Part shown: piece by piece, positions 11,751-61,213 of the stretch
Layout: the number at the start of each line of letters is the position of its first letter
How positions within the stretch are numbered: position 1 is the first letter of the stretch
From: Shigella phage vB_SboS_Gloob
Length of the DNA stretch: 64,000 nt
Sequence record: OL615011
Strand: one strand, 5' to 3'
Translations under genes and position numbers: made by a program
The notes under the pieces: generated by a model
Database searches by the model: none
Seen by the model: the letters and a program-made list of their open reading frames with translations, nothing else
What the model was told of the DNA's origin: nothing

Positions 11751-11996
11751 CTACACTAATTTCTTGGACTTCAGCGTGTCTTTGATCAGGCGCGCATCGG
11801 AGCACTCAGCTGTCAGTCGCGACAACAACGGTGCTGTAATCATCTTTCTGACTTTGGTTTCGTCTATGTCGTTCTCTTCACAGACAGCAGCCAGAGTCTC
11901 AAGGATACTATCCTTGGTTTGGGCGGCGCGCAGTAGGACAATTTCAGAAAATGATTCTGGTGTCATCACAAGCGCTGGTAGTTTTTCGTCAGACAT
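11751..11996 (-). CDS. hypothetical protein
   Basis: 81 aa ORF. Confidence 0.4.
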   Translation of the reverse strand: MSDEKLPALVMTPESFSEIVLLRAAQTKDSILETLAAVCEENDIDETKVRKMITAPLLSRLTAECSDARLIKDTLKSKKLV

Positions 11997-15533: not shown

Positions 15534-17141
15534 ATGTTAGACAATATGAGATGGTTTTATGGCACCGTTGAAGATGTCAACGATCCAGACCAAAACGGGC
15601 GCGTCGCCGTCCGCATCTATGGCGTCCACACTGATGACACCGTCCTCCTGCCTACGGATAAACTCCCATGGGCGAAGGTACTGATGCCTGCTTCAAACGC
15701 CTCCTCTGCTGGTTTAGGTTGGTCTCCAACGGGTATCATTCCCGGCACTGAGGTTATGGGGTTCGCCCTTGACGAAGCATACCAGAACCTGCGTATCACT
15801 TGGACTTGGCCTGGGGCAAATCCCACTGATGGGGCAGACACGAATCCACTGGCTCTCGGACAGGTCGTTCAATCGGTAGAACGTCAGGCGTACAACGCCG
15901 TCACTGACGTTCCTGTGAAACAAGAAGACGAACCACAACCAGATCCACAACCACCTGTTGGTGGGTATGATCCTGAAAAATGGATGACCATCGCTCGTGG
16001 TGAGCTGGGTGTCAAGGAGTACGCCGGAAAGTTCAACAACAACCCGCGCATTATAGAATATCACAAGACAACCTCCCTTGGTGCTTCTGAAGATGAAGTG
16101 TCGTGGTGTGCGGCGTTCGTGGGCTGGGTTATGTTGCAGGCTGGATACACGTCTACGCGCTCCGCTCTTGCCCGATCTTACCTTACATGGGGTAGTGCAC
16201 TGTCAGCACCACAATATGGTGCTATCGTAGTCTTCCGGCGCGGTAACAACCCTACATTTGGACACGTGGCGTTTGTACAGAAGTTCGATGCAAACTATGT
16301 CTGGTGTATCGGTGGCAACCAATCCGATTCAGTGAAGGTCAGCCGCTTCAGCCGTTCGTCAGTCCTGGGCTACCGCTGGCCTGGTCCTGCTAACACAGCC
16401 ACAGCCGCGCCTGCGCAGCAGAATGGTAAATGGTCAGAACCTATCCCAGATCGTACTCCAAAGGAACAACCGACTCCGGCTCCTACAGGGCGCGTCCAGG
16501 ATATTGATAACACGGGCGAAACTATGGTTCCGGCAGCGGGTGGCTCCAAGTACCCGTACAACAACGTCATGGCGTCCCGAGCAGGTCACATAATGGAGGT
16601 GGACGACACTCCTGGTGGTGAGCGTCTTCATTGGATGCACATGTCCGGCTCCTACAAACAGATGCTCCCGAACGGCGACGTCGTCAACAAGTCAGTGAAG
16701 GATCATTATGACCTGACCATGTTTGACAAGCGCTATTATGTCGGCGGGGACCACAACCTGACGGTCAAAGGAACTGAAGTTCAGCGCAAGACTGGTGAGG
16801 TCTATCACCTTCACTCCAACAACTACTCAAATGTGGTTGCTGGTACAGCGCTTATGAAGTTCAGCAACCTAGCAGAGATCCAAGCCCAGAATATCCTGCG
16901 CATCATCTGTGAGACTCTGGAAGTTGGTGGAACTCTCAAGGTGCCGAAGATCCTGGCCACTGAGATCATCGCCGACAAACTGTCGGTCGCTCAGACGATT
17001 GATGGCAACATCAAATATGCCGAGGGTGCAGGTCGTGCTTCTTCTCTGTCTGGTGCTACCCCTGCAACCCCATCGGGTCCAGGCGAGATAGATATTAAGG
17101 CAGAATTAAAAGACAATGGTGGTAATTTCGGCACCGAGTAA
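15534..17141 (+). CDS. 5: baseplate hub/cell-puncturing protein gp5 with CHAP/NlpC-P60-type peptidoglycan hydrolase domain
   Basis: 535 aa; N-terminal OB-fold WFYGTVEDVNDPDQNGRVAVRIYGVH as in T4 gp5; central domain with conserved Cys (WCAAFVGW) and His (FGHVAF) instead of a lysozyme domain. Confidence 0.75.
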   Translation: MLDNMRWFYGTVEDVNDPDQNGRVAVRIYGVHTDDTVLLPTDKLPWAKVLMPASNASSAGLGWSPTGIIPGTEVMGFALDEAYQNLRITWTWPGANPTDGADTNPLALGQVVQSVERQAYNAVTDVPVKQEDEPQPDPQPPVGGYDPEKWMTIARGELGVKEYAGKFNNNPRIIEYHKTTSLGASEDEVSWCAAFVGWVMLQAGYTSTRSALARSYLTWGSALSAPQYGAIVVFRRGNNPTFGHVAFVQKFDANYVWCIGGNQSDSVKVSRFSRSSVLGYRWPGPANTATAAPAQQNGKWSEPIPDRTPKEQPTPAPTGRVQDIDNTGETMVPAAGGSKYPYNNVMASRAGHIMEVDDTPGGERLHWMHMSGSYKQMLPNGDVVNKSVKDHYDLTMFDKRYYVGGDHNLTVKGTEVQRKTGEVYHLHSNNYSNVVAGTALMKFSNLAEIQAQNILRIICETLEVGGTLKVPKILATEIIADKLSVAQTIDGNIKYAEGAGRASSLSGATPATPSGPGEIDIKAELKDNGGNFGTE

Positions 17142-37582: not shown

Positions 37583-37583
37583 G

Positions 37584-38699
37584 TTATGCGTCCAGTTTGT
37601 TCAGGCGTTGTTGGGCAGCATTGTAGAAGTGCTCTGCAAGTTTACAGACGTTTTCAGGGCGCTGGATGTTGTTCCCGGCGCGGATATCCTTCTTCAGGAC
37701 TTCCACTGCATCGGTTGCCACCATCTCTTCGGTGACCTCAACCTTCTCAGCCGCCACGGTGATAGTCCGGTCGATGAAGTTGTAGTCAATGCACTTGCAG
37801 CGCTTCATGGCATCACAGAACTTTTCATAATGCTTAGCATTGTCGCGGTTCTGTACGATAACCTTAACGATTTGCCCTTCAATACCCAAGCCTGTGTTCA
37901 GCCATTCTGGGTCGATCCAGTTACCCTCATCGTCTGAGGACAACTTGGTGTAGTCATACTCCACATAGCGGAACAACGTCTGGTGCTCGCTGTTGGGGAT
38001 GAATACCTCTCCGCCGCGCATGTCGTCCACATAGAAGCCACGGTTGGTGCCGTCTTTGTAGTCTTCCCAATTCAGGTGATACGGAGTCCCAAGATACTGA
38101 ATGTTACCTTCCATCGAACGGGTATGGAAATGCCCCGTGTCGACCCTGTCAAACTTGGAAAGGAGCGCAACGTCGATCTGACCGTGATCACAAGTAGAGG
38201 ACTGGTACATTTTGAACCCCGCCAACTCCAGATGCGCAAAACAGTACTTGGCGTCCGTAGCGTGTATCGCCGCAATAGATGCATCGTAGTTTTCCTTATT
38301 GATCCACGGTAGGAGCAGAGTCTTGACACCCTCGATCATCACTTCGGTCGGTTCGCTGTAGTAGCAGTACACATCTGGGTCGAGTTCGTTCAGGTAGGAT
38401 GGCCAGTTGATGCGGTTGGACTCTTCCAGGGTGATGTCGTGGTTGCCAACAATGCCATTCCACTTGATACCAGCCTCTTTCAGCGCCGGAGTCAGCTCAT
38501 CTTTCAACCAGTCCTTGTCACGACCGTACATGAATTTGCGGACATCAAATGTGTCACCAAACTGCCACACCTCATGGATGTCGGAGGCGACAAGTTCAGG
38601 GATGAAATAATTGATGAGGTAGTTCTTGATGAAGTCGCGAACGTAACGGGAACCATTACGGCTCCCGATATGCAGATCGCCGATTTTAGCAATCGCCAT
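37584..38699 (-). CDS. 47: recombination nuclease gp47 (Mre11/SbcD-like)
   Basis: 371 aa; phosphoesterase motifs DLHIG and GNHD. Confidence 0.9.
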   Translation of the reverse strand: MAIAKIGDLHIGSRNGSRYVRDFIKNYLINYFIPELVASDIHEVWQFGDTFDVRKFMYGRDKDWLKDELTPALKEAGIKWNGIVGNHDITLEESNRINWPSYLNELDPDVYCYYSEPTEVMIEGVKTLLLPWINKENYDASIAAIHATDAKYCFAHLELAGFKMYQSSTCDHGQIDVALLSKFDRVDTGHFHTRSMEGNIQYLGTPYHLNWEDYKDGTNRGFYVDDMRGGEVFIPNSEHQTLFRYVEYDYTKLSSDDEGNWIDPEWLNTGLGIEGQIVKVIVQNRDNAKHYEKFCDAMKRCKCIDYNFIDRTITVAAEKVEVTEEMVATDAVEVLKKDIRAGNNIQRPENVCKLAEHFYNAAQQRLNKLDA

Positions 38700-43278: not shown

Positions 43279-43962
43279 TTACACCTCCACCGCGTGAGAC
43301 TTCAGGAGTTCATCAATCGCTTTCTGTCCCATATAAGAGAATGGGGTGCGCTGGTAGAACGCCCACAGAACCAACTGAACGACAGCGCGGGAACGGGTTT
43401 CGGCCGTCATCACCAGGTCGCTGAAATGAGGAGACTGTGCCGTCCACTGAATCACTTCGCCCAGGTCTTGATTACAGGTCACGGAGATGCGGAACTTGTT
43501 GCACAGATTGTCGACTTCTTTGTACGCATCGGTAGACACCCGAAGTTGGTCTGCATGCGCCCATGGTGTCGTGACGATTCTTTCACCCATCACTTTATCA
43601 GAGATAAACCAATCAATGGATTCAACAAACTTGCCGAAATGGTCGATGCGATAAATGCAGTCTCCCCCTTCCATAGAACGCATGGCATGATAGCGAGCGT
43701 CGATTTCGTTGTTGTGCATCGCGTTGAAGTCGATGAACACGCGACGCGCCAACACAACATCTTCCGGCTCCAGAGGGATGTATTCCCCTTCGTTGCTAGA
43801 CCTCCGGATGTTCGGATAATGTAGAATGCCGCTTAAATGCCCAGTGCAATATACATAACGAGGTCCAACACCCCCGACACGAGCATGAGCGACATAGGAT
43901 GGTTCTGTGAATCGCAAGTGGCCTTGATCGGCACCGACGATAATAGAATAAAGTTTTTCCAT
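43279..43962 (-). CDS. hypothetical protein
   Basis: Likely start MEKLYSIIVGADQGH. Confidence 0.4.
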   Translation of the reverse strand: MEKLYSIIVGADQGHLRFTEPSYVAHARVGGVGPRYVYCTGHLSGILHYPNIRRSSNEGEYIPLEPEDVVLARRVFIDFNAMHNNEIDARYHAMRSMEGGDCIYRIDHFGKFVESIDWFISDKVMGERIVTTPWAHADQLRVSTDAYKEVDNLCNKFRISVTCNQDLGEVIQWTAQSPHFSDLVMTAETRSRAVVQLVLWAFYQRTPFSYMGQKAIDELLKSHAVEV

Positions 43963-44019
43963 GATATAGTCTCTCAAATGAAAAGGGCGACCTTATGATA
44001 AGTCGCCCGAGGTTATTGA

Positions 44020-44928
44020 TTATTGGAAATCACCAACATACATGTTCAGCTTGTCGTCCCAGTTCAGAACAACACGGATCGTTGCGGTATCTTCTGGGAA
44101 GGTCAGTTTGTCACACATGGCGCGATTAACATAAGTCCCACTCTGGTTCACGTTGTAGTCCTTGCCTTGCATGATACCAAAACGCTTGAAGTCGCGTGTC
44201 ACCATCATGTTCAGGGTCGCCCATGGGAGTGATTCACGCAATGCTTTACACAGGATAATCTTTCCATTCGGCCTGAATGATACAAACAACTCATTAGCAA
44301 CCCGGCGGCGGGTGGGTGCCTCGAGTTCACGCAGGGAGATAAATTCAGAGGGATCGTCCAATGCACCCAGGGTGATCATGTCTTCGCGAACTTTATTGAC
44401 AATTTCAGTTACTGCTGACACGACTTCAACTGCCGGATTCGTCTTAAATGGCTCAACAGTCGTGGACATCTTGGATACAGACATCCCGCTGCCGTTGCGC
44501 TTCTCCGCATATTGCTCGACGGACTTGTCACTCACTGGAGGCAGTTTGGTGGCAGGAGTTATGACCGGGCTTGCATCTGGTTTCGCCTTTGGGGTACTCC
44601 GAGCCGCACGCAGCTTTTCCTGGGCTTCCAGAATGCGCTCTTGACGAGAAAGTGGAGCCTTTGGGGTGATCTTCGTACTGAAGTCAGAAACGCCGACCCA
44701 GTCACCCTGGTCATTACGCTTGGCGACCAGAGTCAGTTTGTGGATGATGCCCTGAAGTTTGCTCTCACGCAAGTTGTCGGCATACCAGAACTTCGCACCC
44801 ATCTCGAACTTCTCGGCGAAGATCACGCGAGCGTCTTCGTGTACCAACATAACTTTGGCTGTGTTGGGGGCAAAAGCCTTATTCTTTTCGATAATCGCCG
44901 CAGCGATTGATTTGGTCAGGAGCATCAC
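44020..44928 (-). CDS. hypothetical protein
   Basis: 302 aa ORF. Confidence 0.45.
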   Translation of the reverse strand: MMLLTKSIAAAIIEKNKAFAPNTAKVMLVHEDARVIFAEKFEMGAKFWYADNLRESKLQGIIHKLTLVAKRNDQGDWVGVSDFSTKITPKAPLSRQERILEAQEKLRAARSTPKAKPDASPVITPATKLPPVSDKSVEQYAEKRNGSGMSVSKMSTTVEPFKTNPAVEVVSAVTEIVNKVREDMITLGALDDPSEFISLRELEAPTRRRVANELFVSFRPNGKIILCKALRESLPWATLNMMVTRDFKRFGIMQGKDYNVNQSGTYVNRAMCDKLTFPEDTATIRVVLNWDDKLNMYVGDFQ

Positions 44929-48268: not shown

Positions 48269-50512
48269 TTAGATTTTGATCTCTTTCTCTGCCAGTTCGG
48301 CAGTGACCTTGTACTTCACACCATCCACTTCAACTTCCATGGTGGACTCTTCCAGGTCGAGGTCGGTGAACCAGCCGTGGCCAGCAACGATACCATAAAC
48401 CACTTTAGACAGCGTCTTGTTCAGGGCGCGGACTTCGGTGATGGCCGCCTTGGCAGCAGCGTCGATCCAGTTTTCGATCAGCTGTTTCTGTACGGCTTCA
48501 GGCACGGCAGTGATCGCAGGAGACTTCACGAATGCTTCGTATTCCTTCAGAGCATTGGCGATGAACAAGTCACCCGCATTGAGTTTCTTGTTCTCGGCAA
48601 TCTTCTTCTGTACTGCCGCGATGCTCGGCAGAGAAGACGCTCCAGCGATCTTAACGTTCAGCTCACGGCTCATGTAGACATCCGTGGAGTCCTTCAGTTC
48701 GGTCTTCGGTGAGAAGCCGTAATCACGGATGCCGTAGGAGGACAGGAACTCAGCCGCCTCAGCGCCGTACTGTACTGCCAGGCCTTTGGCGTTGCCTTTG
48801 CCAACCAGTTCATCACGGAAGAACTTCAGCACCTTCTGCTTGCCTTTCAGGGCTTCCAGACGGACATTATCCGCAAAGAACTGAGCAGCACTGATGTTCT
48901 TGACCATGGCGCGGTTGACCAGCGGTACGCTTTCCAGGTTCAGGACAAACACTTCCGGACCACCGAACACATGGACGCCCATCTGGCACAGATTGGTTAC
49001 AACTTCAACATCAGCCCTGAACGGCAGAGTCTTCACGTTGATGATGCCGTCTTTGACGATGGTGTAGTTGCGCCATTGGAAAGTATCCAGTTCTTCAGGC
49101 AGACCGAACTTCTTCTGCACGAACTCCGGAATCGCCACAGTGCCGTGCTGGACAGTGCGTACACTGATATTAGGGCGTTCGGAGTTATAGACCAAATCGC
49201 TGATTGGCACAACACCCAGATCGTTGGTAGGTTCGAACGTCGGGTTCCACTCTTCGTGCTCGGCCAGCTTGAGAGCCAGGGCTTTGCGCTCTTCTTTGGA
49301 CTCGGCGTTCGCGATCTGTTCTGCCAGCTTGTCTTCGGTATCGTCCAGTTTCTGAGCCGTACCGCGACCGATGCTCTTGTAGGAGAACATAGGATGTTTG
49401 GTGGCAACACACACGCCAGCTTCAGCCAGATACGTCAGCACGTCAACGACGGTCGTCGCATCTTCAGCCGGGACCAGGTCATAGTCAATACCGTCAACGC
49501 CGCGCAGCTGGTCATCAACGATGGCCTGGGTCAGATCAACTTTGATGTTGGAGTAGTCCTGCTTGGTGAAGCAGTTGCTGTACTGTTTGATGAAGCGGAC
49601 GTCGCCCGTTTTCTTCAGTGCAGCCCACACCAGGTCTGCGTCCATGATGTGTACGCCGTAGAACGCCAGCACGTATGCCGCCTGGATGTCCGCCAGCGCA
49701 TCAAGTTGGTCGATCATGTTAGGATTGACGACCCACAGCTTCGTGACGCTCTCAGGGATGCTCACGTGGCCAACGGGATGCTCTGCGTCTGCCTGTACCG
49801 CCAGAACAGTTGCTACGCCGTTTTCAACGTAGATGGCATGATCATACAGCAACGGAACATCAACAACCACCTTCGGAACTGAGGACTTCAGCACGGTTTC
49901 CAGCTCGGCCTGATACTCAACCTGACCTTCGGCAAACACGTGAGTCGCACCGGAGCGCTCAGACATCAGAGCCAGCAGTTCGCGGTTACAGTACCAGCCG
50001 TATTCGATGAAAGTGACGTTGTCGAACGCGGAAGGAAGTTTTTCGGCGGTGTCCAGGATCTCATTGGAGCGCCAGCAGTTGTCATAACCATCGGTCATGA
50101 ACGCCAGGTTGTTGACGTAGCCGGGTTTCTTCAGGTCACGCGCAGTATCCATCGCCAGTTTCAATGGCTCAACAAAACCAGTACAGCCGGACGGTTGTAG
50201 GAAGCGGTCGATCAGTTTGTTCAGCTCGCTCAGGTCAGATGCTGCACTAACCTGACGGCCAGCGAACACAGTACCAAAGTCGCCACGGGATGAGAAATAC
50301 AGAACACTCACAGTGTCTTCCGGTTTCACCAGAGAAGGCAGGTTCTCCTTCAGATGCTTACGGACTTCAGGGAGCGCCCGGTACATTGAACCGGAAATGT
50401 CTACAACGATTACATGGTTGGACGGAGCAGCAGTCGCAACCACATTCTTAAATTCTAATGATTCAATCATTGTTCTCTTCGCCTTTTGCGTAAGGGTTAA
50501 GTTCAGACTCAT
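48269..50512 (-). CDS. von Willebrand factor A (vWA) domain protein with MIDAS motif
   Basis: 747 aa; N-terminal VVVDISGSM (DxSxS MIDAS); large C-terminal region of unknown function. Confidence 0.6.
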   Translation of the reverse strand: MSLNLTLTQKAKRTMIESLEFKNVVATAAPSNHVIVVDISGSMYRALPEVRKHLKENLPSLVKPEDTVSVLYFSSRGDFGTVFAGRQVSAASDLSELNKLIDRFLQPSGCTGFVEPLKLAMDTARDLKKPGYVNNLAFMTDGYDNCWRSNEILDTAEKLPSAFDNVTFIEYGWYCNRELLALMSERSGATHVFAEGQVEYQAELETVLKSSVPKVVVDVPLLYDHAIYVENGVATVLAVQADAEHPVGHVSIPESVTKLWVVNPNMIDQLDALADIQAAYVLAFYGVHIMDADLVWAALKKTGDVRFIKQYSNCFTKQDYSNIKVDLTQAIVDDQLRGVDGIDYDLVPAEDATTVVDVLTYLAEAGVCVATKHPMFSYKSIGRGTAQKLDDTEDKLAEQIANAESKEERKALALKLAEHEEWNPTFEPTNDLGVVPISDLVYNSERPNISVRTVQHGTVAIPEFVQKKFGLPEELDTFQWRNYTIVKDGIINVKTLPFRADVEVVTNLCQMGVHVFGGPEVFVLNLESVPLVNRAMVKNISAAQFFADNVRLEALKGKQKVLKFFRDELVGKGNAKGLAVQYGAEAAEFLSSYGIRDYGFSPKTELKDSTDVYMSRELNVKIAGASSLPSIAAVQKKIAENKKLNAGDLFIANALKEYEAFVKSPAITAVPEAVQKQLIENWIDAAAKAAITEVRALNKTLSKVVYGIVAGHGWFTDLDLEESTMEVEVDGVKYKVTAELAEKEIKI

Positions 50513-50779: not shown

Positions 50780-52444
50780 TCAGATTTGTGATGCCAATTC
50801 TGCCACCAGAGGAGCAGCACGAACACGCGCATCTTCCAGAGTCTGGGTGTTGAAGAACTTGCCGTCACGATACACCAGCTGGTGCTGGTTGTCGGCGTCT
50901 TGCACCTGATCAAAGGTGATACCGTCAACCAACACTAGTTTACCCTGAGAGTCTTTAATGACTTTAAGGAAACCACGCGCAGACTTTTTAGTCCCGCCTT
51001 TGTCGGTCTTCGGCTCTTTGAAGATCTCACGGAATTCGCCGTTCACTTTACCAGCCGTTGCTTTCACTGCCGTGCCAGTACTGTCACGGGTGTTCATCTG
51101 GTAGGTGTAGGAACCGATACCGAACACCACGTTGATGGAAGCAAAGTTCCGGCCAGCCAGACGACCAAAGATCTGGTCTTCACGTGCCAGGGTGATGGAG
51201 TCGCCGTAAATCAGACCGATGTGTTCGTCCAACAGGAAGTGACCAGTTTCGGTCTGGGTCCCGCCAAAGATCTCCCACAGGCGCTGGATAGAGCCGACCG
51301 CTTCTGAACGACTGATGATATTGCGGTCATCTGCCATCAGAGAGTTGATCGTGCCTTCGCCTGTAATCAGGTGATAGGTGTTCGTCTCTTCGATGTGAAT
51401 GACTTCGGTGCTGCTAGACACGCCGCTGATGTTCAGCATAGCGCGGTCTTTGAACCCCTCAATGCGGTAGCCGCCGACGATATGAACTGGGTCGCCCGAG
51501 TCAGGGCGGATCACGACTTTGCCGTTGCGTGCCATGATAATATCTTTCAGGCGCGGCAGATAGTCGTCGATGACCTGCCAGTAATCCCACGCATCAGACA
51601 CGATGCTGACGATGCCATCAGGATACACGTCCTGCACCAGGCGGCGGAAGGTTTCGAATTCACCATCCTTCGTACCCATACACATCACGGCGTGTTCGGT
51701 AGCCGCAACAGAACCAGCAACGACATAGTCTTCGTCGATGTCTGCGCCATAATACTCTTCTACGAAGTCCAGGGCAGGGTTGGTATCGGTGCCTTTGAAG
51801 AACACCAGATGACCGGAACCGGAAGACGCCGCGTCATGCCACCCACTCATACCACGGAAGGAGAAGTCGTGGCCTTGGTAGTCGATGAACCAATGGTCCG
51901 GCGACACGCCTGTAGCGAGGGCAGCTTTCACCATCAGTGCCTTGTAATGCAGAGCGATGGTGGCGTTCGTCATCGGCTTCCAGATCTCAGAGCTGAACAC
52001 AGTCTCCAGATAGTTGGTCAGCCAGTAGAACTCCGGCAGGGTGTTGAACATCACATACACCGGAACGCCATATGGGCACATGGTGCCTTCAGGCAGAGCA
52101 CGGACTTCGATAGGCAGGTAGCCGAGGTCATGCAGGGCTTCAATATGCTCTGTGCCGACGCGGCCTGGACCCAGGACTTTGTTCATGCGACGGGCATACT
52201 TCTTCAACACCTTGGCCTTTGGGCGCTGGAAGAATGCTTCGTCAAACAGTTCGTGGAACCAGGTCATGAAGCCCTGGATGCCCCAGACCACCACGCCGTT
52301 CTTCGGCAGGTGAGAGTTGAACAGTTTGTTGGAGCGCGGAGTTCCGTTGGAGAACACCAGCTCGCTGCCTTCAGGGAACTGATAGATGTGCCCTGATTTG
52401 TAGAAGTCGATTGCATGGATTGGATCTAAGTGGCGCATGCTCAT
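50780..52444 (-). CDS. nadV: nicotinamide phosphoribosyltransferase family protein (NAMPT/NadV or Namat)
   Basis: 554 aa; motifs FKGTDT, VAGSVAATEHA, RPDSGDP. Confidence 0.8.
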   Translation of the reverse strand: MSMRHLDPIHAIDFYKSGHIYQFPEGSELVFSNGTPRSNKLFNSHLPKNGVVVWGIQGFMTWFHELFDEAFFQRPKAKVLKKYARRMNKVLGPGRVGTEHIEALHDLGYLPIEVRALPEGTMCPYGVPVYVMFNTLPEFYWLTNYLETVFSSEIWKPMTNATIALHYKALMVKAALATGVSPDHWFIDYQGHDFSFRGMSGWHDAASSGSGHLVFFKGTDTNPALDFVEEYYGADIDEDYVVAGSVAATEHAVMCMGTKDGEFETFRRLVQDVYPDGIVSIVSDAWDYWQVIDDYLPRLKDIIMARNGKVVIRPDSGDPVHIVGGYRIEGFKDRAMLNISGVSSSTEVIHIEETNTYHLITGEGTINSLMADDRNIISRSEAVGSIQRLWEIFGGTQTETGHFLLDEHIGLIYGDSITLAREDQIFGRLAGRNFASINVVFGIGSYTYQMNTRDSTGTAVKATAGKVNGEFREIFKEPKTDKGGTKKSARGFLKVIKDSQGKLVLVDGITFDQVQDADNQHQLVYRDGKFFNTQTLEDARVRAAPLVAELASQI

Positions 52445-53295
52445 TTTACACGTCCTGTATTTTCAGTTTTGAAAGGAAGGCCGTCGGTGGTGATATTCTC
52501 CCACCAGACAGTGTCGGCATACACAGCATCATAGATCCCGTCGAAAACAGAGAGACCTTTGCTGAAGATGCCATGGGTGACGAAGAGCGTCATGTGCTTA
52601 GGCTCGTGCTTCTGAAGCTCTTTACCCAGCTCAACAAACGTGCGCCCGCCATCGCAGATATCATCAACCACCACCAGATAGCGGTCTTTGATCAGTTCAG
52701 GGTTTGTAATGCTCACCCCAATGATCTCACCAGTCTTGGTGTCACGGTTCTTGTGGCCGTAGACAACAGGAACACCATCCAACGACAGGCTGAGGGCTTC
52801 GGTCTTCTTCGCCGCGCCGCCGTCAGGGGCTACTAGCACAGCGTTGTTCCCACGGATGAACCAGCCCAGATACTGCCGCACGATGTAATCTTGCGGGACA
52901 ACATGGACGTTGTTGATCAGAGAAGACACGACATGGCTGTGAGGGTCTTTGATCGCCACGCGGTCAAAGTTCATGCTATTGATGAACTCAGCCGCCCACT
53001 TCACGGACAGAGGCTCGCCGAAGTCGCAATGGCGGTCCTGGCGAGCATACGGGAAGTAAGGGATATACGCATGGAAGGTCGTCAGACGGTCCACGTTACC
53101 CAGGCCGCGCACGGCGTTTACCAGAAGCGCCAGCTCAATGAAGTCGGCTGATGATTTGATGTGGGCATCAATCACAACCGTCTGAATCTTACCGACAGGA
53201 ATACCAGCCTTTTGGATCTTGATATGTTCCTCACCACCTGGGAAGGTGAAGTGTTTGTAGAACACATCTTGGTCGTTCAATTTCAAACGAAACAT
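52441..53295 (-). CDS. ribose-phosphate pyrophosphokinase (Prs) family protein, candidate ADPR-PP synthetase
   Basis: 284 aa; Prs hallmark IPYFPYARQDR and PRPP-binding loop VVVDDICDGGRT; overlaps NAMPT-like gene. Confidence 0.75.
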   Translation of the reverse strand: MFRLKLNDQDVFYKHFTFPGGEEHIKIQKAGIPVGKIQTVVIDAHIKSSADFIELALLVNAVRGLGNVDRLTTFHAYIPYFPYARQDRHCDFGEPLSVKWAAEFINSMNFDRVAIKDPHSHVVSSLINNVHVVPQDYIVRQYLGWFIRGNNAVLVAPDGGAAKKTEALSLSLDGVPVVYGHKNRDTKTGEIIGVSITNPELIKDRYLVVVDDICDGGRTFVELGKELQKHEPKHMTLFVTHGIFSKGLSVFDGIYDAVYADTVWWENITTDGLPFKTENTGRVK

Positions 53296-53401: not shown

Positions 53402-53770
53402 TCAGGTTTTGGATTGTTCACATACCTCGGCCACCTTGCGACACATGTCGATATCGAACAAGCCAATATGACACTCACGCTTCTTTATCCCCAGCTTATG
53501 CGCCAGCCAACTGTAAGCGTCGCTCCTGCTCCTCTCTCCGCTTTTCCACAATGGGTCAAACGATCTGCTTCTCGGCACGGAGAGCGGCATTCGCCATCCT
53601 TCCCAGAGGTTGTCTGCCGTCGCCATGGGCATGGCAACCGACACGAGCGTCACATGGAGTGCATACCCAGAACTTCAGATTGCGGAGGTCAGGGCGATGA
53701 GGGTGGAGGACGTCACCACCGATGAATTCGGCTGGGAGGCCGCAGTAATCACAGATGACAGGTTTCATAT
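53402..53770 (-). pseudogene. DUF3268-like zinc-ribbon protein split by a +1 frameshift
   Basis: N-terminal ORF (CDYCG...CTPCDARVGCH...PLGRMANAALRAEKQIV stop) and C-terminal ORF (RSRSFDPLWKSGERSRSDAYSWLAHKLGIKKRECHIGLFDIDMC) together form one domain of about 120 aa; frame change near 53570-53590. Confidence 0.4.
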
Positions 53771-53774
53771 TCTT

Positions 53775-53806
53775 TGTCCAAAAGAAACCCCGCACATGGC
53801 GGGGTT
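53775..53806 (-). terminator. rho-independent terminator
   Basis: AACCCCGC-CATGT-GCGGGGTT followed by TCTTTTGG on minus strand. Confidence 0.6.
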
Positions 53807-53828: not shown

Positions 53829-54200
53829 TTATTTCAGCAGCGCTTCCAGTTCTTCAACAGATTTGCCTTCCAGCTCCTGCTGTTTCTTACGCTGGATCAG
53901 CTCCAGGATAACCTGGTTGTTCGCCTTACGCTCTGCCGCGTCTTTGCTGTCGTCACGCTCTTTCAGCTTAACGCCGATGATGTGCTTGACAACGTCGAAG
54001 CGCAGCTGCAGTTCGGAGTCAACGTTGCTTTTGGTGCCGATGAAATCTTCTTCATCGGTTTCCGCTGCCTTCACCTGACGGCTCAGACCTTTCGCCATTT
54101 CGTTCAGGGCAGTCAGGCTCAGGTCCCAGACCTGCTCAACAGACAGCAGACCTTTGTTAGACTCGAAGCGCAGTTTCAGACGGGTTGCTTTATCAAACAT
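53829..54200 (-). CDS. hypothetical charged protein
   Basis: 123 aa ORF. Confidence 0.45.
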   Translation of the reverse strand: MFDKATRLKLRFESNKGLLSVEQVWDLSLTALNEMAKGLSRQVKAAETDEEDFIGTKSNVDSELQLRFDVVKHIIGVKLKERDDSKDAAERKANNQVILELIQRKKQQELEGKSVEELEALLK

Positions 54201-54244: not shown

Positions 54245-56263
54245 TTAGAAAACAACTTTCACAGTGCGGTTGAAAGAGCCGCTCACCTTCACGAACACGT
54301 GGTTGCGTTGGGTGGTAGAGAAGCCCAGACCGGACAGCTGCTCAGTGCTTGGCTGTACTTTAATCTTACCGCCCAACATTTCAAAAACCTTGCGGTGTTT
54401 ATCAAGTTCCGGCTTCAGATACTCGTTATAGAAGCCACGAGTGCCGACAGGGTTAGCACAACCTTCCAGAATGAAGAACACGTGCTTGTTGCCTGTCTGT
54501 TCGCCATCCCAATGGTTTGGTGAGTTCAGAACCAGCTGTACCTTCTGGAAGACAGCGGTCTTGATACCCCAGATTTCCTGGGAGCGAGCATCGTCCTTCA
54601 GGGTAGAACGGATGTCTACCACTTGTCCAGCGCGGACATCAATCACAACAGCCAGAGTGCGATCTTTGTGCTTCAGGCCAGGATGCGAAAAACGCTTGGT
54701 CTGGCCTTTGTATTCAACTTCGATTTCGAAGCCCATATCACAGGTTTCACGCTGGCTGAAGTTAGTGACATAGAACTCGTACAGACCATCACGCAGCTTG
54801 CGTTCATCGCTGAAGAAGATGTTCTCCACCGGGCGGCGGTTGGGGTCAATACCGTCCATACCGTTCATGTCGATATCCAGGGTTGCGCCAGTTGCCGAAC
54901 GACGGTTGTGATAATACACGTGGTTGTGAAGAGGATCGTTCAGGCTCAGATCCAGGTCATCGTTGTTATGCCACGCCAGGGACACACGGAGGAAACCGTC
55001 AACGTTGCCGCCTGCCGTCTTCACGCGCTCTTTGATGGAGTCGGCCACTTCACCGTTGTATGACCAGCTGAAGCCGTTGTTCCACTTGAACAGGTTAGGA
55101 GCACCTGCCGTAGCCGGAGCGATCAGGGACATCAGGTTGCCAGTGTGAGAGTTTTCAACCAGCACTTCCAGGGAATGCGCCTTTGGCAACACGTTGGTCA
55201 GGAAGTCGTCGATGGTGATCTCTTCAACCTTGTCCAGGGACTTGGTCGGAGTCTTCACTTCAGACGCCAGCTGAGCAAACGGGTCCATCTTCTTCTGTGC
55301 TGCCAGGTCGGCAAACAGAACGTTGTTGATGGTCAGATCGTCATACACGGCATAACGGCGACCCAGTGAATCAGTCAGACCCAGCGCTTCGACTTCTTTC
55401 TGCGCGTTTTCAATCATGGACTTCGTGACCAGCGCGGTTGGGCGCTTGTAGTTCGTCGGAGCGACTTTGGCTTCAAAGGACTTCACGGCGGTTTCCAGAT
55501 CCCGACCTTCATTGAGGTCTACCAACAGAGAGCCAATCACGGTATTGCGGATGCCGTGAGGGGTGTGTCCGTTTGCACGGTAGCCAGTACGCCAAGCCCA
55601 CAGAGCGCGTTTCTCTTCTGCAGTTTGTTCGTACAGGGTCTTGCTCGTCACGAACGCCTGCACAGCAGCTTTGTGCTCTTCACCACGATACAGAGAATTC
55701 TGATCAATCAGTTCCAGAACGATTTCGGCCGATTCCAGAGACAGTTCACGCAGGCCGCGCTCAAACACTTCAATCGCCTGGCGGATTTCACCCTTCTTAG
55801 AAGCGATGGCATCAGCCCGCAGAACATAGCTGGGCAGCAGGTCGGTGTGGAAGTGGTTGTAGGTGCGGACATTACCGTCTTTCATTTCGTGATTCGACTC
55901 AACGCCGACTTTCTTGGTATCGTTGAAGTACACGTCGACGATTGCGTGTTGCTTGACATACGCAGACAGCGCCGCAGCGACAACGTCGTATTCGTTACCC
56001 AGCTGAATGTTATCCCAGATAGAGATCACGTTCAGGTCGGCGTCGATGGTCACCACACCGCCGATGTTACGGATGAATTGTTTACAGCAGGTGCAGTCGT
56101 GCTCGGTGCGCTCACGGTAGAGCGGGTTGGTGCCAGCAGGGAAAGAGTTCAGATACAGATCCCACAGAGCATCTTTATCGATGTTGGTCATGAACAGACC
56201 AGTTGCTGACATGGCCAGCACATTATTGTTTACGGCTACTGCGAAGGGCTTAAATTCTGACAT
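54245..56263 (-). CDS. large hypothetical protein (672 aa)
   Basis: Long uninterrupted ORF; Cys cluster HDCTCCKQF; no recognised catalytic motif. Confidence 0.55.
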   Translation of the reverse strand: MSEFKPFAVAVNNNVLAMSATGLFMTNIDKDALWDLYLNSFPAGTNPLYRERTEHDCTCCKQFIRNIGGVVTIDADLNVISIWDNIQLGNEYDVVAAALSAYVKQHAIVDVYFNDTKKVGVESNHEMKDGNVRTYNHFHTDLLPSYVLRADAIASKKGEIRQAIEVFERGLRELSLESAEIVLELIDQNSLYRGEEHKAAVQAFVTSKTLYEQTAEEKRALWAWRTGYRANGHTPHGIRNTVIGSLLVDLNEGRDLETAVKSFEAKVAPTNYKRPTALVTKSMIENAQKEVEALGLTDSLGRRYAVYDDLTINNVLFADLAAQKKMDPFAQLASEVKTPTKSLDKVEEITIDDFLTNVLPKAHSLEVLVENSHTGNLMSLIAPATAGAPNLFKWNNGFSWSYNGEVADSIKERVKTAGGNVDGFLRVSLAWHNNDDLDLSLNDPLHNHVYYHNRRSATGATLDIDMNGMDGIDPNRRPVENIFFSDERKLRDGLYEFYVTNFSQRETCDMGFEIEVEYKGQTKRFSHPGLKHKDRTLAVVIDVRAGQVVDIRSTLKDDARSQEIWGIKTAVFQKVQLVLNSPNHWDGEQTGNKHVFFILEGCANPVGTRGFYNEYLKPELDKHRKVFEMLGGKIKVQPSTEQLSGLGFSTTQRNHVFVKVSGSFNRTVKVVF

Positions 56264-56378
56264 GATGTAGTCTTCCTGTTTCAGTTCAAATGTGCGCCCC
56301 GTTTGCCAGAGCGCTTCGTTTAAGTGAGGTCAATAATACGTTGAAAAAGGTTATTGAAGAATGAAGTAAAGGGAATCT

Positions 56379-57599
56379 TTATTCAGGTTTCTTCAAACGG
56401 TCCAGCAAATTGACGGAACCACGTTTGAGCACGACTTCATCACAGCGCTTTTTGTATTCCCCGCCGCCGTCATAGCTGACCTTGCCCCGAGGTTTTTCAC
56501 CGCGCCCAACCGCCTCAACACAGCGAGTGTACTTGCTCAGTTCACAGAACATGTTCTCCAGCTGCATGACGTTCATGCACTGATCTACAGGCTCTTCGGC
56601 TGACCAGAATTGCTCGCGAACATACCCATATTGGGAGTATACTGCGTCCTGATTATCCCGTAGCCAGAATATGCATTCTTCGTGAGTCATGCCGTCTTTG
56701 TTCAGGAACAGCAGATCAATACCTGCGCGACAGCCCGGTCCGGCTATCGTGAAGTGGTTCTCACTGAACGGATAACCAGGCATGTACGTGAAGTCAACCC
56801 AGATCTGGTATGCCAGGAATGGACCAAGACCTTCGATGTCGTCGTACATGCGCTGGTATACTTCCAGAGGAGTACCAAGGCGCAGCAGGTCATGGAAGTA
56901 ATTTGGATACTTGTTGACGAATGCCTTCAGGGAACGGATGACACGCATTGGCATGTACGGCTCCCAGCCTTCGATGGTGTAGAAGTCCGGCTCCGCTTCA
57001 GCGATGGCCTTGGCTTCCTTATAATCCATGTTCTGGGTCGAACCATCTTTGCAGATCAGGTTCACCATCATCCCACCGAAGCGCTGCTCTTTGTGGTTGA
57101 CAACCAGCTCAGGGAAAGCCAGGCATTGCTTCAGACCGCCCGTGTTGAAGGCATTGGTGAATACTTTACCGCCGTCGGCCTCGAACTTCTGAAGTCGTTC
57201 GCGGGTTGCGTCAAGGTTGATCTTGGCGAATTCTTTGATCGTCATCGCGCCGCCGATAGCCTGGATCGGATCCCAGAGGTTGAACATGCGGAACAGCACG
57301 CAGTTAAACATCTTGTCTGCCATACCCAGAGCATCGTTGTTGACGATGTTGTTGATCAGGTTAAGAGACTGCCTGTCGTGCTCTCTCCGGACGTTACAGA
57401 ACTTGACCTGCCGTAGTATAGGATTATTCGTCCAAGGGGCAGGAAGACGCTGGACGTCCTTCTTGACGTGGATCTTATAGCGCTCGCTCATCCATTCGTA
57501 AGACAGGCGGGTATGGGTCGGACTGAGAACCGGTTTGGCCGACTTTATCTTTTCTTCACGGACACCGCAGTACGGGACGTCCAGGGCTTTATCTTTCAT
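56379..57599 (-). CDS. hypothetical protein (406 aa), candidate nucleic-acid modifying enzyme
   Basis: Long ORF; no motif assigned by eye. Confidence 0.5.
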   Translation of the reverse strand: MKDKALDVPYCGVREEKIKSAKPVLSPTHTRLSYEWMSERYKIHVKKDVQRLPAPWTNNPILRQVKFCNVRREHDRQSLNLINNIVNNDALGMADKMFNCVLFRMFNLWDPIQAIGGAMTIKEFAKINLDATRERLQKFEADGGKVFTNAFNTGGLKQCLAFPELVVNHKEQRFGGMMVNLICKDGSTQNMDYKEAKAIAEAEPDFYTIEGWEPYMPMRVIRSLKAFVNKYPNYFHDLLRLGTPLEVYQRMYDDIEGLGPFLAYQIWVDFTYMPGYPFSENHFTIAGPGCRAGIDLLFLNKDGMTHEECIFWLRDNQDAVYSQYGYVREQFWSAEEPVDQCMNVMQLENMFCELSKYTRCVEAVGRGEKPRGKVSYDGGGEYKKRCDEVVLKRGSVNLLDRLKKPE

Positions 57600-57610
57600 G
57601 GTATCCTCTT

Positions 57611-57645
57611 AGAATACGAAAAACAGAGGCCATTATAGCCTCTGT
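57611..57645 (-). terminator. rho-independent terminator
   Basis: ACAGAGGC-TATAATG-GCCTCTGT followed by TTTTCGTATT on minus strand. Confidence 0.6.
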
Positions 57646-57668
57646 TGTTTAGTGAATAACTGTATATC

Positions 57669-58538
57669 TTAATCGATACGGGACAGCTGAGTGATAGATG
57701 ATTGCACTGGGCTGGCCACATAGATACGGACGTTGGCTTTCCACGTACCCCACAGGAGAGGCAGAGTCGGGAAGTTTACTTCGTTCAGCTCAAATACAGG
57801 GATGTAACTCTCCAGCGCTTCCCCAGAATACGCCTGGAAGCCCATCTCGGCGTACTGAAGGATCTCTTCTGGGAAATCGAAAGGTGCGTATGCAACGCCC
57901 ATGGATTCGTTCATGCCCATTCGACCCGCAGTGGCAGTGCCCGTCAGAATGATTTCGGTGATCTGGCGCTTAGGCTCGGTGGTCAACATATCAGAGAAGT
58001 CCGGCTCTTTGAATGCTGCCATGTTCTTCAGGAACTTGCCAGCCGGGTACTCTTTGCCGTCGACGGTGATGGTGTCTACCACTTTGATGCACGCCTGAGG
58101 GAATTCCCCTTCGATGCGTAGACTTTCGCGTGGGAAGCCTTTGTTGTAGTAGTAATCCAGTGCAGGCACAACTTCACCTTCATTACGGATGAACTTGCTC
58201 ATGTTGGAAGCATAAACGCGCTGTAGGCACTCATCGCCGTCGAAACCAGCAATGTGAGCCACGCCGTCATTGACGGTGGTGATATCACCCTGAGCGTCCA
58301 TGATGTCCTTCAGGATTTCCTGAATGGTTCTGGTCTGGTAAGGTTCTTGTTTAGGTGTGAGCACCAGATCCAGTTTCACATCGCAATCGTAGTACGCCGC
58401 CTCCAACAGTTCGCGGGTCTCTTCCAGCACCAGTTTCGCCTGATTGCGAATCTTACCAAAGTCGGGCGATGTGACATCGCCCTTTGCATTACCGAAAGCC
58501 AGATTCAGATTCACGTTCTTAGAAAATGTAGTTGTCAT
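57669..58538 (-). CDS. hypothetical protein (289 aa)
   Basis: ORF immediately downstream of regA. Confidence 0.5.
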   Translation of the reverse strand: MTTTFSKNVNLNLAFGNAKGDVTSPDFGKIRNQAKLVLEETRELLEAAYYDCDVKLDLVLTPKQEPYQTRTIQEILKDIMDAQGDITTVNDGVAHIAGFDGDECLQRVYASNMSKFIRNEGEVVPALDYYYNKGFPRESLRIEGEFPQACIKVVDTITVDGKEYPAGKFLKNMAAFKEPDFSDMLTTEPKRQITEIILTGTATAGRMGMNESMGVAYAPFDFPEEILQYAEMGFQAYSGEALESYIPVFELNEVNFPTLPLLWGTWKANVRIYVASPVQSSITQLSRID

Positions 58539-58554: not shown

Positions 58555-59019
58555 TTATTCGCTTTTGGCCTTTGTAGGCCGGATAATGTATTTTGGGACC
58601 AGCTTCCATTCAGGAACCTGATCGTGTTTAACCACTTTAATGCGTGACATATCGGCGGCTTCGGTGACCTGCTCGGGGTGAATGACCTTCACCATGTTCC
58701 ACTGCTCAAGCAGCTTGATGATGCGGTTCATCCTCAGGACATCTTCGCGGTTAAACCCGTTGTAATGCCCGTCCAGCATAAACAGATGCTTGAAGTGGAC
58801 GATATAATACTTGCCATACTTATGAAGAATATGACAAGTCTGATACAGAGTATTCGGCTCTTGGCGCGTGTTTACCCCAATTCGGCTCAGTGTTTCCTTG
58901 ATCCCCAGGAATATTCCTGGCCGATCTTGGTTCAATTGAACTTCAACCATACAATCAACGATGCTGGCCTCATCGTTGACGGCTGAAATGTTCAATATGT
59001 CTAGCGTATTGCGCGCCAT
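58555..59019 (-). CDS. regA: translational repressor RegA
   Basis: LYQTCHILHKYGKYYIVHFKHLFMLDG and EWKLVPKYIIRP match T4 RegA. Confidence 0.85.
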   Translation of the reverse strand: MARNTLDILNISAVNDEASIVDCMVEVQLNQDRPGIFLGIKETLSRIGVNTRQEPNTLYQTCHILHKYGKYYIVHFKHLFMLDGHYNGFNREDVLRMNRIIKLLEQWNMVKVIHPEQVTEAADMSRIKVVKHDQVPEWKLVPKYIIRPTKAKSE

Positions 59020-59048: not shown

Positions 59049-59471
59049 CTACTTAGCCTTGCGCGGTTTCGCTTTGGCGTTCAGCTCAGTACGTCCCATC
59101 TTCTCGCGTATCTCGGCCAGGACTTCCTTCGGCAAGAAACGGACGTACTCGGATGCCTTCTCCATGCTGATGTAGAAGTACTCGGAGAGTAACTTCACGT
59201 CAGGATCAATCGGACCTTTCTTAGACCATTTGTCGTAGCGTTTCCGCGCCGGAATGGTGTGAAAGGCATATGACCATTGCATCCATGGAGTGACAGCATG
59301 CAGCTTGTTCATCTGCTGTGCAGTCACCAGAGTGTCTTTGCTCTGAGCTAAACCACGCCGCGTCATAAACGGGTCGAATCCTTTCAACACTTCTGGGTCA
59401 TCAGACTGCAGAAGGTTTTCTTTGCTGCTGTTCAGAGCAGCCAGGTAATCGAACAATCCAGGGGCGGCCAT
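59049..59471 (-). CDS. 62: clamp loader small subunit gp62
   Basis: 140 aa; PARKRYDKWSKK resembles T4 gp62 RGKRYGKWAK; position between gp44 and regA. Confidence 0.7.
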   Translation of the reverse strand: MAAPGLFDYLAALNSSKENLLQSDDPEVLKGFDPFMTRRGLAQSKDTLVTAQQMNKLHAVTPWMQWSYAFHTIPARKRYDKWSKKGPIDPDVKLLSEYFYISMEKASEYVRFLPKEVLAEIREKMGRTELNAKAKPRKAK

Positions 59472-60544: not shown

Positions 60545-61213
60545 TTACTCAATCTGTGCGCCGACGAAGTAATTGATCGTCGCGTCGGATGATTGGAAGT
60601 TCACCATCTGCAGCTCAGCGCAGGCACGCAGAGTGTAGTTGCCTTCGATCATCTTCAGGTTAGCAACGTCCAGTGGCATGACGAAGTCCGGCAGCGCGGT
60701 TTCACCCAGCTCAACGGTGTAGTTGTTGGAGTTGTCCAGGGTAGTGGTGGTTGCAACCAGGCGAGTTTTGCCACCCTGAGCAACCAGGCGCACAGTCTTG
60801 TGACCGAGGGTAGAACAGGCGCGGGTCAGTTCTTTCATCTTCTCTGGAGTGATGATCGCTTCAAAGTCGACAGACGGCAGTTCAATGGTGTCAGCCGGAA
60901 CAACAGTGAGTTCTTTAGCAGAACGCCAGAATTGCAGCTGAGAGCTTTCGCCTTTCAACAGGATGTAGTCCTGATGGAATTCGGCTTTACCGCCTTTGAA
61001 GGAAGGCAGGCGCTGGATGGCCAGAAGTTTGGTCAGGTCCAGGATAGGGAACTCAAACGGGAAGTCTTCTTCGATCTGAGCCACGGCGATAACAGTAGAC
61101 GAATCGTTAATGCTGCGCAGCATCTTACCCGGTGTCAGAACGATAGATGGGTTGATGGTCTCAAAGTTGGCCAGCAACTGGAGTGTACGTTCGGAGAGAG
61201 TGATCTCTTGCAT
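60545..61213 (-). CDS. 45: sliding clamp gp45
   Basis: 222 aa; size and N-terminal similarity to T4 gp45; adjacency to gp44/62. Confidence 0.8.
   Translation of the reverse strand: MQEITLSERTLQLLANFETINPSIVLTPGKMLRSINDSSTVIAVAQIEEDFPFEFPILDLTKLLAIQRLPSFKGGKAEFHQDYILLKGESSQLQFWRSAKELTVVPADTIELPSVDFEAIITPEKMKELTRACSTLGHKTVRLVAQGGKTRLVATTTTLDNSNNYTVELGETALPDFVMPLDVANLKMIEGNYTLRACAELQMVNFQSSDATINYFVGAQIE

Follow-up and report, generated by a model that had tools for sequence, protein, structure and literature searches.

Gene content and order of the locus

The 64,000-nucleotide stretch of DNA analysed here (the window) derives from Shigella phage vB_SboS_Gloob (sequence record OL615011), and the subject of this work is a group of three consecutive genes lying next to the translational repressor gene regA, between positions 54245 and 58538 on the minus strand, which encode proteins of 289, 406 and 672 amino acids (aa). 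An earlier note on this DNA had placed the three genes in the slot that DNA polymerase gene 43 occupies in T4, and had proposed them as candidate enzymes acting on hydroxymethyl-pyrimidine DNA. Our analyses indicate that they likely have unrelated functions within the ordinary conserved gene order of ViI-like phages, constituting neither one modifier operon nor a replacement of gene 43. The locus is organised as follows:

60545-61213, minus strand: gp45, sliding clamp/clamp-loader group (open reading frame and annotation of the 96.6%-identical region of phage Ag3)
59476-60519, minus strand: gp44, sliding clamp/clamp-loader group (open reading frame and Ag3 annotation)
59049-59471, minus strand: gp62, sliding clamp/clamp-loader group (open reading frame and Ag3 annotation)
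58555-59019, minus strand: regA translational repressor (Pfam Translat_reg, E 1.9e-34; phrog_242)
57669-58538, minus strand: 289-aa protein, with a putative MazG/HisE-type N-terminal domain (residues ~1-190) and a lineage-specific C-terminal domain
57646-57622, minus strand: terminator-like hairpin with an 11-bp stem and a T-run, between the 289-aa and 406-aa genes
56379-57599, minus strand: 406-aa protein, HMUDK_hel / aGPT-Pplase clade 1
54245-56263, minus strand: 672-aa protein, DUF8224 (PF26675), multidomain
53829-54200, minus strand: 123-aa partner of DUF8224 (phrog_2018)
53806-53786, minus strand: terminator-like hairpin that follows the 123-aa gene and ends the DUF8224 pair

The surrounding 5.6 kb share 96.6% identity with Shigella phage Ag3 and 96.3% with Salmonella phage SKML-39, and 282 phage records match this region, almost all of them Ackermannviridae (ViI-like); judged from these matches, the window is a segment of an Agtrevirus (Ackermannviridae) genome. 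With a G+C content of about 52% and roughly 3 of 64 codons being stops, 289 codons would stay open by chance with a probability of about 1e-6, and all three open reading frames have hundreds to thousands of conserved homologues; given lengths far above chance and such numerous relatives, they are real genes. All three are already present in public annotation, near-identical in hundreds of sequenced phages, and the description of the proteins as uncharacterised was only in part appropriate, as for two of them, already named, family assignments were available. The genes had also been described as separated by terminators, which applies only to the junction between the 289-aa and 406-aa genes, where the hairpin is followed by a T-run; no such site was predicted in the 115 nt that part the 406-aa gene from the 672-aa gene. 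The region shows no excess of terminator-like sites (10 found vs. 7.6 ± 3.1 in shuffled sequences).

In T4 the gene order is 45-44-62-regA-43. The window shares the order 45-44-62-regA, which in agreement with the earlier note is followed by the 289-, 406- and 672-aa genes, as borne out by the positions of the open reading frames, the Pfam matches and the Ag3 annotation; the polymerase that comes after regA in T4 is missing from the window. Family B polymerase motifs (DxxSLYPS, YxDTDS, KxxxNSxYG) are absent from the three proteins, as had been remarked by eye, polymerase Pfam models match none of them, and a tblastn search of the whole window with the ViI DNA polymerase found nothing, which together rule out a polymerase in disguise. 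Homologues of the polymerase and of ViI gp247, gp243 and gp226 were found nowhere in the window. The order regA - MazG-like - orf00160 - orf00158 - orf00155 is annotated alike in Ag3 and ViI, and the ViI polymerase (Vi01_190) is encoded at 145-148 kb, about 56 kb away, beside gp243 (a second 5-hydroxymethyl-dU (5-hmdU) DNA kinase, kinase2) and gp247 (ADDT, an amino-acid:DNA transferase); the polymerase gene of Vibrio and Aeromonas relatives lies ahead of a kinase2-ADDT-HMUDK_hel cluster. Gene organisation in Ackermannviridae is scattered, unlike that of T4-type phages (PMC11721090). Since the polymerase of the family lies elsewhere and its gene order is scattered, the comparison with the T4 slot implies no replacement of gene 43, contrary to what the earlier note had implied.

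The 406-aa protein is an orthologue of ViI gp160

The 406-aa protein matches Pfam PF18723 with 275.2 bits (cut-off 25; E 7.7e-82) over profile positions 4-278 of 281. The family, now named HMUDK_hel ("5-hmdU DNA kinase, helical domain"), was formerly aGPT-Pplase1, and the designation aGPT-Pplase clade 1 is said to come from the 2013 work of Iyer et al.; the record of an M6-like phage labels a member "aGPT-Pplase1 domain-containing protein". The protein is 100% identical to its SKML-39 counterpart and shares 84% identity over 407 aa with ViI Vi01_130c (orf00160), whose gene has the same neighbours on either side. The orf00NNN notes of the ViI record correspond to the gp numbering used by Lee et al., and gp226, gp243 and gp247 map in this way to the accessions of PMC8989533, so that Vi01_130c is the published gp160. 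By similarity and synteny, the 406-aa protein is therefore the orthologue of ViI gp160 (aG/PT-PPlase1), with the same Pfam family, the same slot between the MazG-like and DUF8224 genes, and no substantive difference between the two.

Gp160 was named aG/PT-PPlase1 within the thymidine-hypermodification gene set, and five ViI lysates including it jointly made 5-NeOmdU on DNA containing hmdU (Lee et al., 2018, PMC5889632). The ViI 5-NeOmdU pathway was later rebuilt with a kinase, gp247 for serine transfer and gp226 for decarboxylation, gp160 being assigned no activity, and in a drop-out of M6 lysates the gp51 product was still formed without gp55, an HMUDK_hel member (PMC8989533). A literature search under the names HMUDK_hel and PF18723 found no publication. 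Among the families that the earlier note had named for comparison, aGPT-Pplase is thus matched by the 406-aa protein, while glycosyltransferase and ADP-ribosyltransferase profiles match none of the three proteins, nor does the amino-acid:DNA transferase model. Its suggestion of enzymes acting on hydroxymethyl-pyrimidine DNA is consistent with the 406-aa protein, as a PF18723 member and gp160 orthologue, and not with the 289-aa protein, of a nucleotide-pool type, or the 672-aa protein, a DUF8224 member.

Occurrence of HMUDK_hel in hypermodifying phages

All hypermodifying phage lineages examined had HMUDK_hel alongside 5-hmdU DNA kinases. In the window, it co-occurs with a kinase and a thymidylate-synthase homologue, which belong to the following group of genes, the kinase gene lying about 50 kb from the 406-aa gene:

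5729-6403, minus strand: 5-hmdU DNA kinase of type HMUDK_HMUD1 (Pfam HMUDK_HMUD1, E 3e-107)
4683-5729, minus strand: dUMP hydroxymethylase homologue (Pfam Thymidylat_synt)
4117-4686, minus strand: P-loop kinase, 189 aa (sub-threshold match to P-mevalo_kinase, 19.5 bits vs. a 33.8-bit cut-off)
3575-4120, minus strand: dimeric-type dUTPase, 181 aa (Pfam dUTPase_2)

Going by these family matches, the segment 3575-5729 is the precursor module of the hmdU pathway. An ACT-like domain protein (PF24021, E 4e-80; 3033-3710, minus strand) is encoded between the dUTPase_2 gene and uvsX.

In Pseudomonas phage PaMx11, gp50 is an HMUDK_hel protein (E 5.6e-41) encoded directly downstream of the proven kinase gp49, and in Vibrio D493, Aeromonas phiA8-29 and Pseudomonas Cygsa01 an HMUD2 kinase gene is followed by ADDT and, after small genes, by HMUDK_hel. 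A 636-aa protein of the SP10-like Bacillus phage vB_BsuM-Goe26 (2535-4445) consists of an HMUD1 kinase (residues 35-193) fused to HMUDK_hel (312-597), its gene lying upstream of a thymidylate-synthase homologue. The fusion of HMUD1 to HMUDK_hel in Goe26 and the location of HMUD2 beside ADDT elsewhere (ViI, Vibrio, Aeromonas, Pseudomonas) hint at two kinase-partner pairs. For Acinetobacter phage SH-Ab 15599, a member of the Ackermannviridae, the whole pathway was reconstituted with five proteins, and the HMUDK_hel gene is outside the published scheme (PMC13458397); this gene (locus tag 00016, E 6e-40; 8961-9926 of the examined stretch) adjoins the dUMP hydroxymethylase gene, and in the same phage regA is directly followed by a Pplase2/ADDT gene (3922-5251 of the examined stretch). 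Given this co-occurrence across all lineages examined, HMUDK_hel is the one universally linked component of the hypermodification set without an assigned activity.

In Microbacterium phage Koji, a siphovirus of 39 kb, the gene of a Ploopntkinase3 kinase comes before that of HMUDK_hel (36567-38040), and ADDT is not detectable; the phage has ThyX instead of a ThyA-type hydroxymethylase, and its HMUDK_hel carries Gln at the position of the motif Glu discussed below, a set that suggests a different, unexplored base modification. A protein with DUF2786 and DUF7168 is encoded just downstream of HMUDK_hel both in Aeromonas phiA8-29 (orf_039, 6240-6941) and in Koji (gp50, 35593-36330), and may be a further conserved neighbour of the HMUDK_hel system. 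RefSeq repeatedly gives 5-hmdU DNA kinases the wrong name "terminase small subunit", and calls the HMUD2 kinase a "guanylate kinase"; mislabelled loci are SKML-39 G178_gp114 (43720-44382), PaMx11 gp49 (14218-14787), Koji 37435-38040 and a further one at 30620-31534.

Fold, conserved motifs and likeness to ADDT

The AlphaFold2 model of the 406-aa protein (pLDDT 87.5, pTM 0.83) is all-alpha. Foldseek returned no significant PDB match for the whole model, the PaMx11 gp46 structure (8Z2M) not being among the returned entries, and its best-overlap matches were Ogg- and Mag2-type helix-hairpin-helix (HhH) glycosylases, weak in all cases (E > 0.5, TM-score 0.3-0.51). Searches of PDB sequences (with the single sequence and with a profile), NCBIfam and PADLOC found nothing for this protein. 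In an alignment of 23 HMUDK_hel members, down to 24% identity, the residues E348, C352, E353, K356 and Y357 are invariant (motif E348-x3-C352-E353-x2-K356-Y357), as are G287, P288, G289 and G293 of a GPGxxxG hairpin motif (287-293), in which C290 is nearly so. The (E-x3-)C-E-x2-K-Y motif is retained in the PaMx11, 15599 and Goe26 proteins.

A characterised counterpart is ADDT (aGPT-Pplase clade 2 or Pplase2; ViI gp247, M6 gp51, PaMx11 gp46, PDB 8Z2M/8Z2N), encoded in the same clusters as HMUDK_hel. In PaMx11 gp46, E243 and C247 are catalytic, with the Glu four residues before the essential Cys, and the Cys attacks C6 (PMC11472151, PMC8989533). Both families have a conserved Glu-x3-Cys after a G-P-aromatic helix motif, in collinear arrangement in hhalign, and the same HhH glycosylase-like fold has been predicted for both in the literature. 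The HMUDK_hel motif was placed by hhalign on the E243/C247 segment of gp46, with E 0.1 against gp46 alone and, when a profile of five ADDT members was used, E 0.068 over 112 columns (E 0.07-0.17 for the attempts overall), a placement on the catalytic segment that is suggestive, not significant. The two families differ in that pairwise similarity between the 406-aa protein and ADDT is absent, and in that HMUDK_hel members are dispensable for amino-acid transfer. The ADDT model (PF18724) does not match the 406-aa protein at E ≤ 0.1, while it does match ViI gp247, PaMx11 gp46 and the D493, phiA8-29 and Cygsa01 proteins.

Proposed function of the HMUDK_hel family

On the basis of these motifs and of the genomic association, the 406-aa protein probably acts on phosphorylated hmdU in DNA via a cysteine adduct. 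It would bind replicated phage DNA and flip out 5-hmdU already phosphorylated by the 5-hmdU DNA kinase, and the invariant Cys352 with the neighbouring Glu would react at C5/C6 in the manner of the paralogous amino-acid:DNA transferases, giving a product other than the hypermodified base.

What this product could be is suggested by the composition of the mature DNA. The virions of hypermodifying phages are without hmdU, the residues that are not hypermodified become thymidine, and the conversion of 5-hmdU to thymidine was stated as still unknown (PMC5889632). Treatment with M6 gp51 (ADDT) and borohydride turned 5-PmdU into thymidine (PMC8989533), and an ADDT paralogue provided with a biological hydride donor would thus fill the thymidine-forming gap. 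The HMUDK_hel family may accordingly be conjectured, with low probability in our estimate, to convert kinase-phosphorylated 5-hmdU in DNA to plain thymidine, and so to be the missing enzyme of hypermodifying phages. In such a route Cys352 would attack C6, loss of the phosphate would yield an exocyclic methylene, and a hydride donor would reduce it; two branches would then run in parallel, kinase 1 with HMUDK_hel leading to thymidine and kinase 2 with ADDT to hypermodification. The presence of the family in every hypermodifying lineage examined, its dispensability for the hypermodified base and its Cys-Glu core are compatible with this conversion.

Alternatively, the 406-aa protein could be a non-catalytic subunit of the 5-hmdU DNA kinase that binds DNA or confers specificity, choosing which hmdU residues are phosphorylated. 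Such a role is implied by the present Pfam name, and in Goe26 and SP10 HMUDK_hel and the kinase form a single fused protein, their genes being adjacent in PaMx11 and Koji; the SP10 kinase domain is active alone, which makes the helical part accessory to phosphorylation (PMC8989533), hypermodification is sequence-specific, occurring at TG/TC sites (PMC13458397), and the protein, helical throughout, carries an HhH-like GPG motif. However, the C-E-x2-K-Y core is invariant in all members examined, with the upstream Glu in all but Koji, and the hhalign placement of the motif on the catalytic Glu/Cys of ADDT suggests chemistry over mere binding. Moreover, in the window the gene is 50 kb from that of the kinase, and kinases phosphorylate DNA in vitro without HMUDK_hel (PMC8989533). 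We therefore regard a specificity subunit as a possible but unlikely explanation, and favour a protein acting chemically on phosphorylated hmdU.

The 289-aa protein is a putative nucleotide pyrophosphohydrolase

The 289-aa protein matches phrog_2144 ("MazG-like pyrophosphatase") with E 8e-132 and, over residues 2-193, phrog_671 with E 6e-20, and is already annotated in RefSeq as a MazG-type pyrophosphatase. Its sequence has 100% identity to the counterpart in Shigella phage vB_SboS_Gloob. Direct matches were not obtained in Pfam and NCBIfam (E ≤ 0.1) or among PDB sequences (single sequence and profile), the MazG, MazG-like, PRA-PH and dUTPase_2 models included. A profile search of 1.84 billion representatives yielded 309 relatives, nearly all over residues 1-190 only. 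Ten of these relatives (found at E 1e-10 to 1e-40) were scanned in turn, and six matched PRA-PH; in four the match passed the threshold, and one of the four matched MazG as well. Scores were 24-32 bits for PRA-PH (cut-off 21.3) and 22 bits for MazG (cut-off 22). In 14 sequences, E39, E40, E43, E46, D81 and D85 are invariant. The pattern EExxE...(E/D)xxD is the acidic metal-binding motif of all-alpha nucleoside triphosphate (NTP) pyrophosphohydrolases. The N-terminal domain of the 289-aa protein has the EExxE...DxxD motif in common with the members of this class (MazG, HisE/PRA-PH, dimeric dUTPase), from which the protein differs by an additional C-terminal domain of ~100 aa, far more variable and confined to Ackermannviridae. 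We infer that the 289-aa protein is an all-alpha, metal-dependent NTP pyrophosphohydrolase trimming a nucleotide pool. Its N-terminal domain is found by itself in phage groups that the HMUDK_hel searches did not return, such as N4-like phages of Pectobacterium and Klebsiella and PAK_P1-like phages of Pseudomonas, and Cygsa01 likewise has an NTP pyrophosphohydrolase gene just after regA.

Phages of this kind are known to require a dTTPase activity, and SH-Ab 15599 gp18 is the experimentally characterised dTTPase/dUTPase (PMC13458397). The 289-aa protein could be the corresponding enzyme of the hmdU pathway, excluding thymidine from replication and feeding dUMP to the hydroxymethylase: its predicted class is that of the all-alpha NTP pyrophosphohydrolases, its gene adjoins that of HMUDK_hel in all genomes of Kuttervirus/Agtrevirus type, and one distant relative is fused to thymidylate kinase. 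Against this, gp18 (11151-12326 of the examined stretch) is a fusion of a P-loop kinase-like and a dUTPase_2 domain, and the window holds the same two domains in the same order as separate adjacent genes, the dUTPase_2 gene (3575-4120) belonging to the hydroxymethylase operon; the occurrence of N-domain homologues in phage groups where the searches returned no HMUDK_hel also argues against the pathway role. As a better candidate is available at 3575-4120, the 289-aa protein is probably not the dTTPase/dUTPase of the hmdU pathway, a role that we consider improbable. Its identification as a homologue of gp18 itself is ruled out, gp18 being of the dUTPase_2 type and matching the other gene of the window. 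The nucleotide-pool pyrophosphohydrolase thus remains the preferred assignment for the 289-aa protein.

Distribution of DUF8224 and relationship among the three genes

The 672-aa protein matches phrog_1735, of unknown function, and precomputed matches to PF26675 (DUF8224) exist for a 100%-identical database protein and for 118 of 119 other listed homologues. More than 5,400 homologues were scored. By tblastn, full-length relatives at 40-55% identity are encoded in rV5-like phages, phiCbK-like Caulobacter phages, RSL1, Bacillus Bastillevirinae, cyanophages and EBPR siphovirus 2; DUF8224 is also found in 70-100 kb phages of marine hosts (DSS3_VP1, Vibrio pVa5 and PG11, Alteromonas AD45-P4) and, at ~29% identity, in Cellulophaga phages, while jumbo phages have shorter proteins spanning only its N-terminal ~400 residues. 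Dickeya phage PP35 matches residues 1-89 only. The Caulobacter, Bacillus, Xanthomonas and cyanobacterial phage groups with DUF8224 are absent from the HMUDK_hel searches, and SH-Ab 15599, in which the hypermodification pathway has been reconstituted, has no DUF8224. On these phyletic grounds the 672-aa protein appears to be no part of thymidine hypermodification.

The same distributions bear on the idea, put forward in the earlier note, that all three proteins are DNA-modification enzymes (transferases) working on hydroxymethyl-pyrimidine DNA as one module after regA. Adjacency and co-orientation are conserved across Ackermannviridae, the middle gene truly belongs to the hypermodification set, and in SH-Ab 15599 regA is directly followed by ADDT (Pplase2), so that the slot appears to attract modification genes. 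Nonetheless the three families differ in phyletic distribution, DUF8224 and the MazG-like N-domain being present in groups that the HMUDK_hel searches did not return, and in the relatives from Vibrio, Aeromonas and Pseudomonas HMUDK_hel is grouped with the kinase and ADDT instead of the other two families. In addition, the strong terminator-like hairpin parts the 289-aa and 406-aa genes, and no transferase model matches the 289-aa or the 672-aa protein. A joint module is hence very improbable, and the distributions appear to have largely refuted it.

The view that the three genes have unrelated functions draws on observed identities, family memberships, synteny and phyletic patterns, and a number of points weigh against it or against the functions proposed within it. 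The genes are adjacent and co-oriented across the family, so that co-regulation is possible; every catalytic statement on the three proteins is a matter of inference; the MazG assignment follows from a PHROG label and transitive homology, not from a direct Pfam or PDB match; the link between HMUDK_hel and ADDT is statistically weak, as the best hhalign E-value (0.068), the Foldseek E-values above 0.5 and the failure to recover gp46 indicate; the Koji protein has Gln in place of E348, with the rest of the motif kept; and only one of the ~5 domains of DUF8224 has a structural match, described below, for which the TerD Pfam model is itself unmatched.

The DUF8224 cassette and its neighbours

Foldseek returned no significant PDB match for the whole model of the 672-aa protein, while residues ~420-560 have a TerD-like beta-sandwich fold (PDB 2kxt, 2qz7). 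No Pfam family was matched by the whole protein (E ≤ 0.1) or by the excised TerD-like segment (E ≤ 10), TerD included, and searches of PDB sequences (single sequence and profile), NCBIfam and, with the excised domains, Pfam gave nothing. TerD proteins are single-domain, of ~190 aa, and belong to cellular stress operons, whereas the TerD-like domain of DUF8224 is one of ~5, the other four being unmatched. PADLOC defence models matched none of the 289-, 406-, 672- and 123-aa proteins, nor a 747-aa protein encoded nearby, at E ≤ 0.1, and a literature search under the names DUF8224 and PF26675 found no publication. In ViI, the DUF8224 gene is split into Vi01_128c and Vi01_129c by a frameshift at ~15858-15878 of the examined stretch, an apparent 1-nt change in an A-run within the TerD-like domain, which is either a sequencing error or a real disruption; split annotations of the ViI type are the probable origin of the separate PHROGs 23228 and 25920.

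The 123-aa protein has a conserved N-terminal half and a charged C-terminal half that looks helical by eye. A homologue is encoded directly downstream of DUF8224 in all seven other loci compared, detected by BLAST (E 1e-13 to 1e-63) in ViI, a 210-kb metagenomic contig, Klebsiella phage DP, DSS3_VP1 and EBPR siphovirus 2, and by hidden Markov model (E ~1e-33) in Caulobacter phage Karma and Bacillus phage BC-T25. The annotation notes of Ag3 point to a gp058/gp059 pair of RSL1, known to us from that text only. The pair occurs in phages with and without hmdU, and DUF8224 is often found among RNA-repair and NAD-salvage genes. Its two members thus appear from their conserved adjacency to be a self-contained two-gene cassette distributed across many unrelated lytic phages. 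At low confidence, the two proteins may form a complex whose TerD-like module binds Ca2+ or a ligand; our guess is a role in host takeover or counter-defence rather than in DNA modification.

Two further associations were considered. A Ter-like module of TerD and von Willebrand factor A (vWA) proteins, composed of DUF8224 and the 747-aa vWA protein, is not supported, as the two differ in their phage distributions. A link between DUF8224 and NAD salvage was set aside as a weak lead: NAMPT adjoins DUF8224 in DSS3_VP1 and NadR/PnuC are near it in Klebsiella phage DP, but such genes are absent in other contexts. That the 672-aa protein is a virion or structural protein, as pilins and adhesins among the beta-sandwich matches could suggest, or an RNA polymerase, as a few GenBank records call its homologue ("DNA-directed RNA polymerase", a label without support in Pfam, PDB sequence or fold matches), is extremely unlikely.

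Other genes accompany the cassette in this part of the window. Just downstream of the DUF8224 pair lies a gene for a 79-aa zinc-finger protein (DUF3268, E 1.3e-10; 53556-53795, minus strand). Two minus-strand genes, one like ribose-phosphate pyrophosphokinase (52441-53295) and one like nicotinamide phosphoribosyltransferase (50780-52444), share 4 nt, and this pair (50780-53295) is absent from the ViI region, in agreement with its reported variable presence in Agtrevirus. The 747-aa protein (48269-50512, minus strand; phrog_2426) has an N-terminal vWA domain and is called "minor tail protein" in some records; homologues are present in T4-like Slopekvirus, Citrobacter Miller-type, Pseudomonas pf16, PBS1 and Rhizobium phages.

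Implications

For the Ackermannviridae, the finding mostly corrects an expectation: what looked like a missing polymerase reflects the scattered gene order of the family. Among the two-gene cassettes of large lytic phages, that of DUF8224 and its small partner is one of the more widely distributed and best preserved, with no assigned function. The gp160-type family and the thymidine-forming step can be tested against each other with existing reagents and, if the conversion of phosphorylated 5-hmdU to thymidine by HMUDK_hel proved true, it would join two gaps in the biology of hypermodifying phages, namely a conserved family without an activity and a step, from 5-hmdU to thymidine, without an enzyme.

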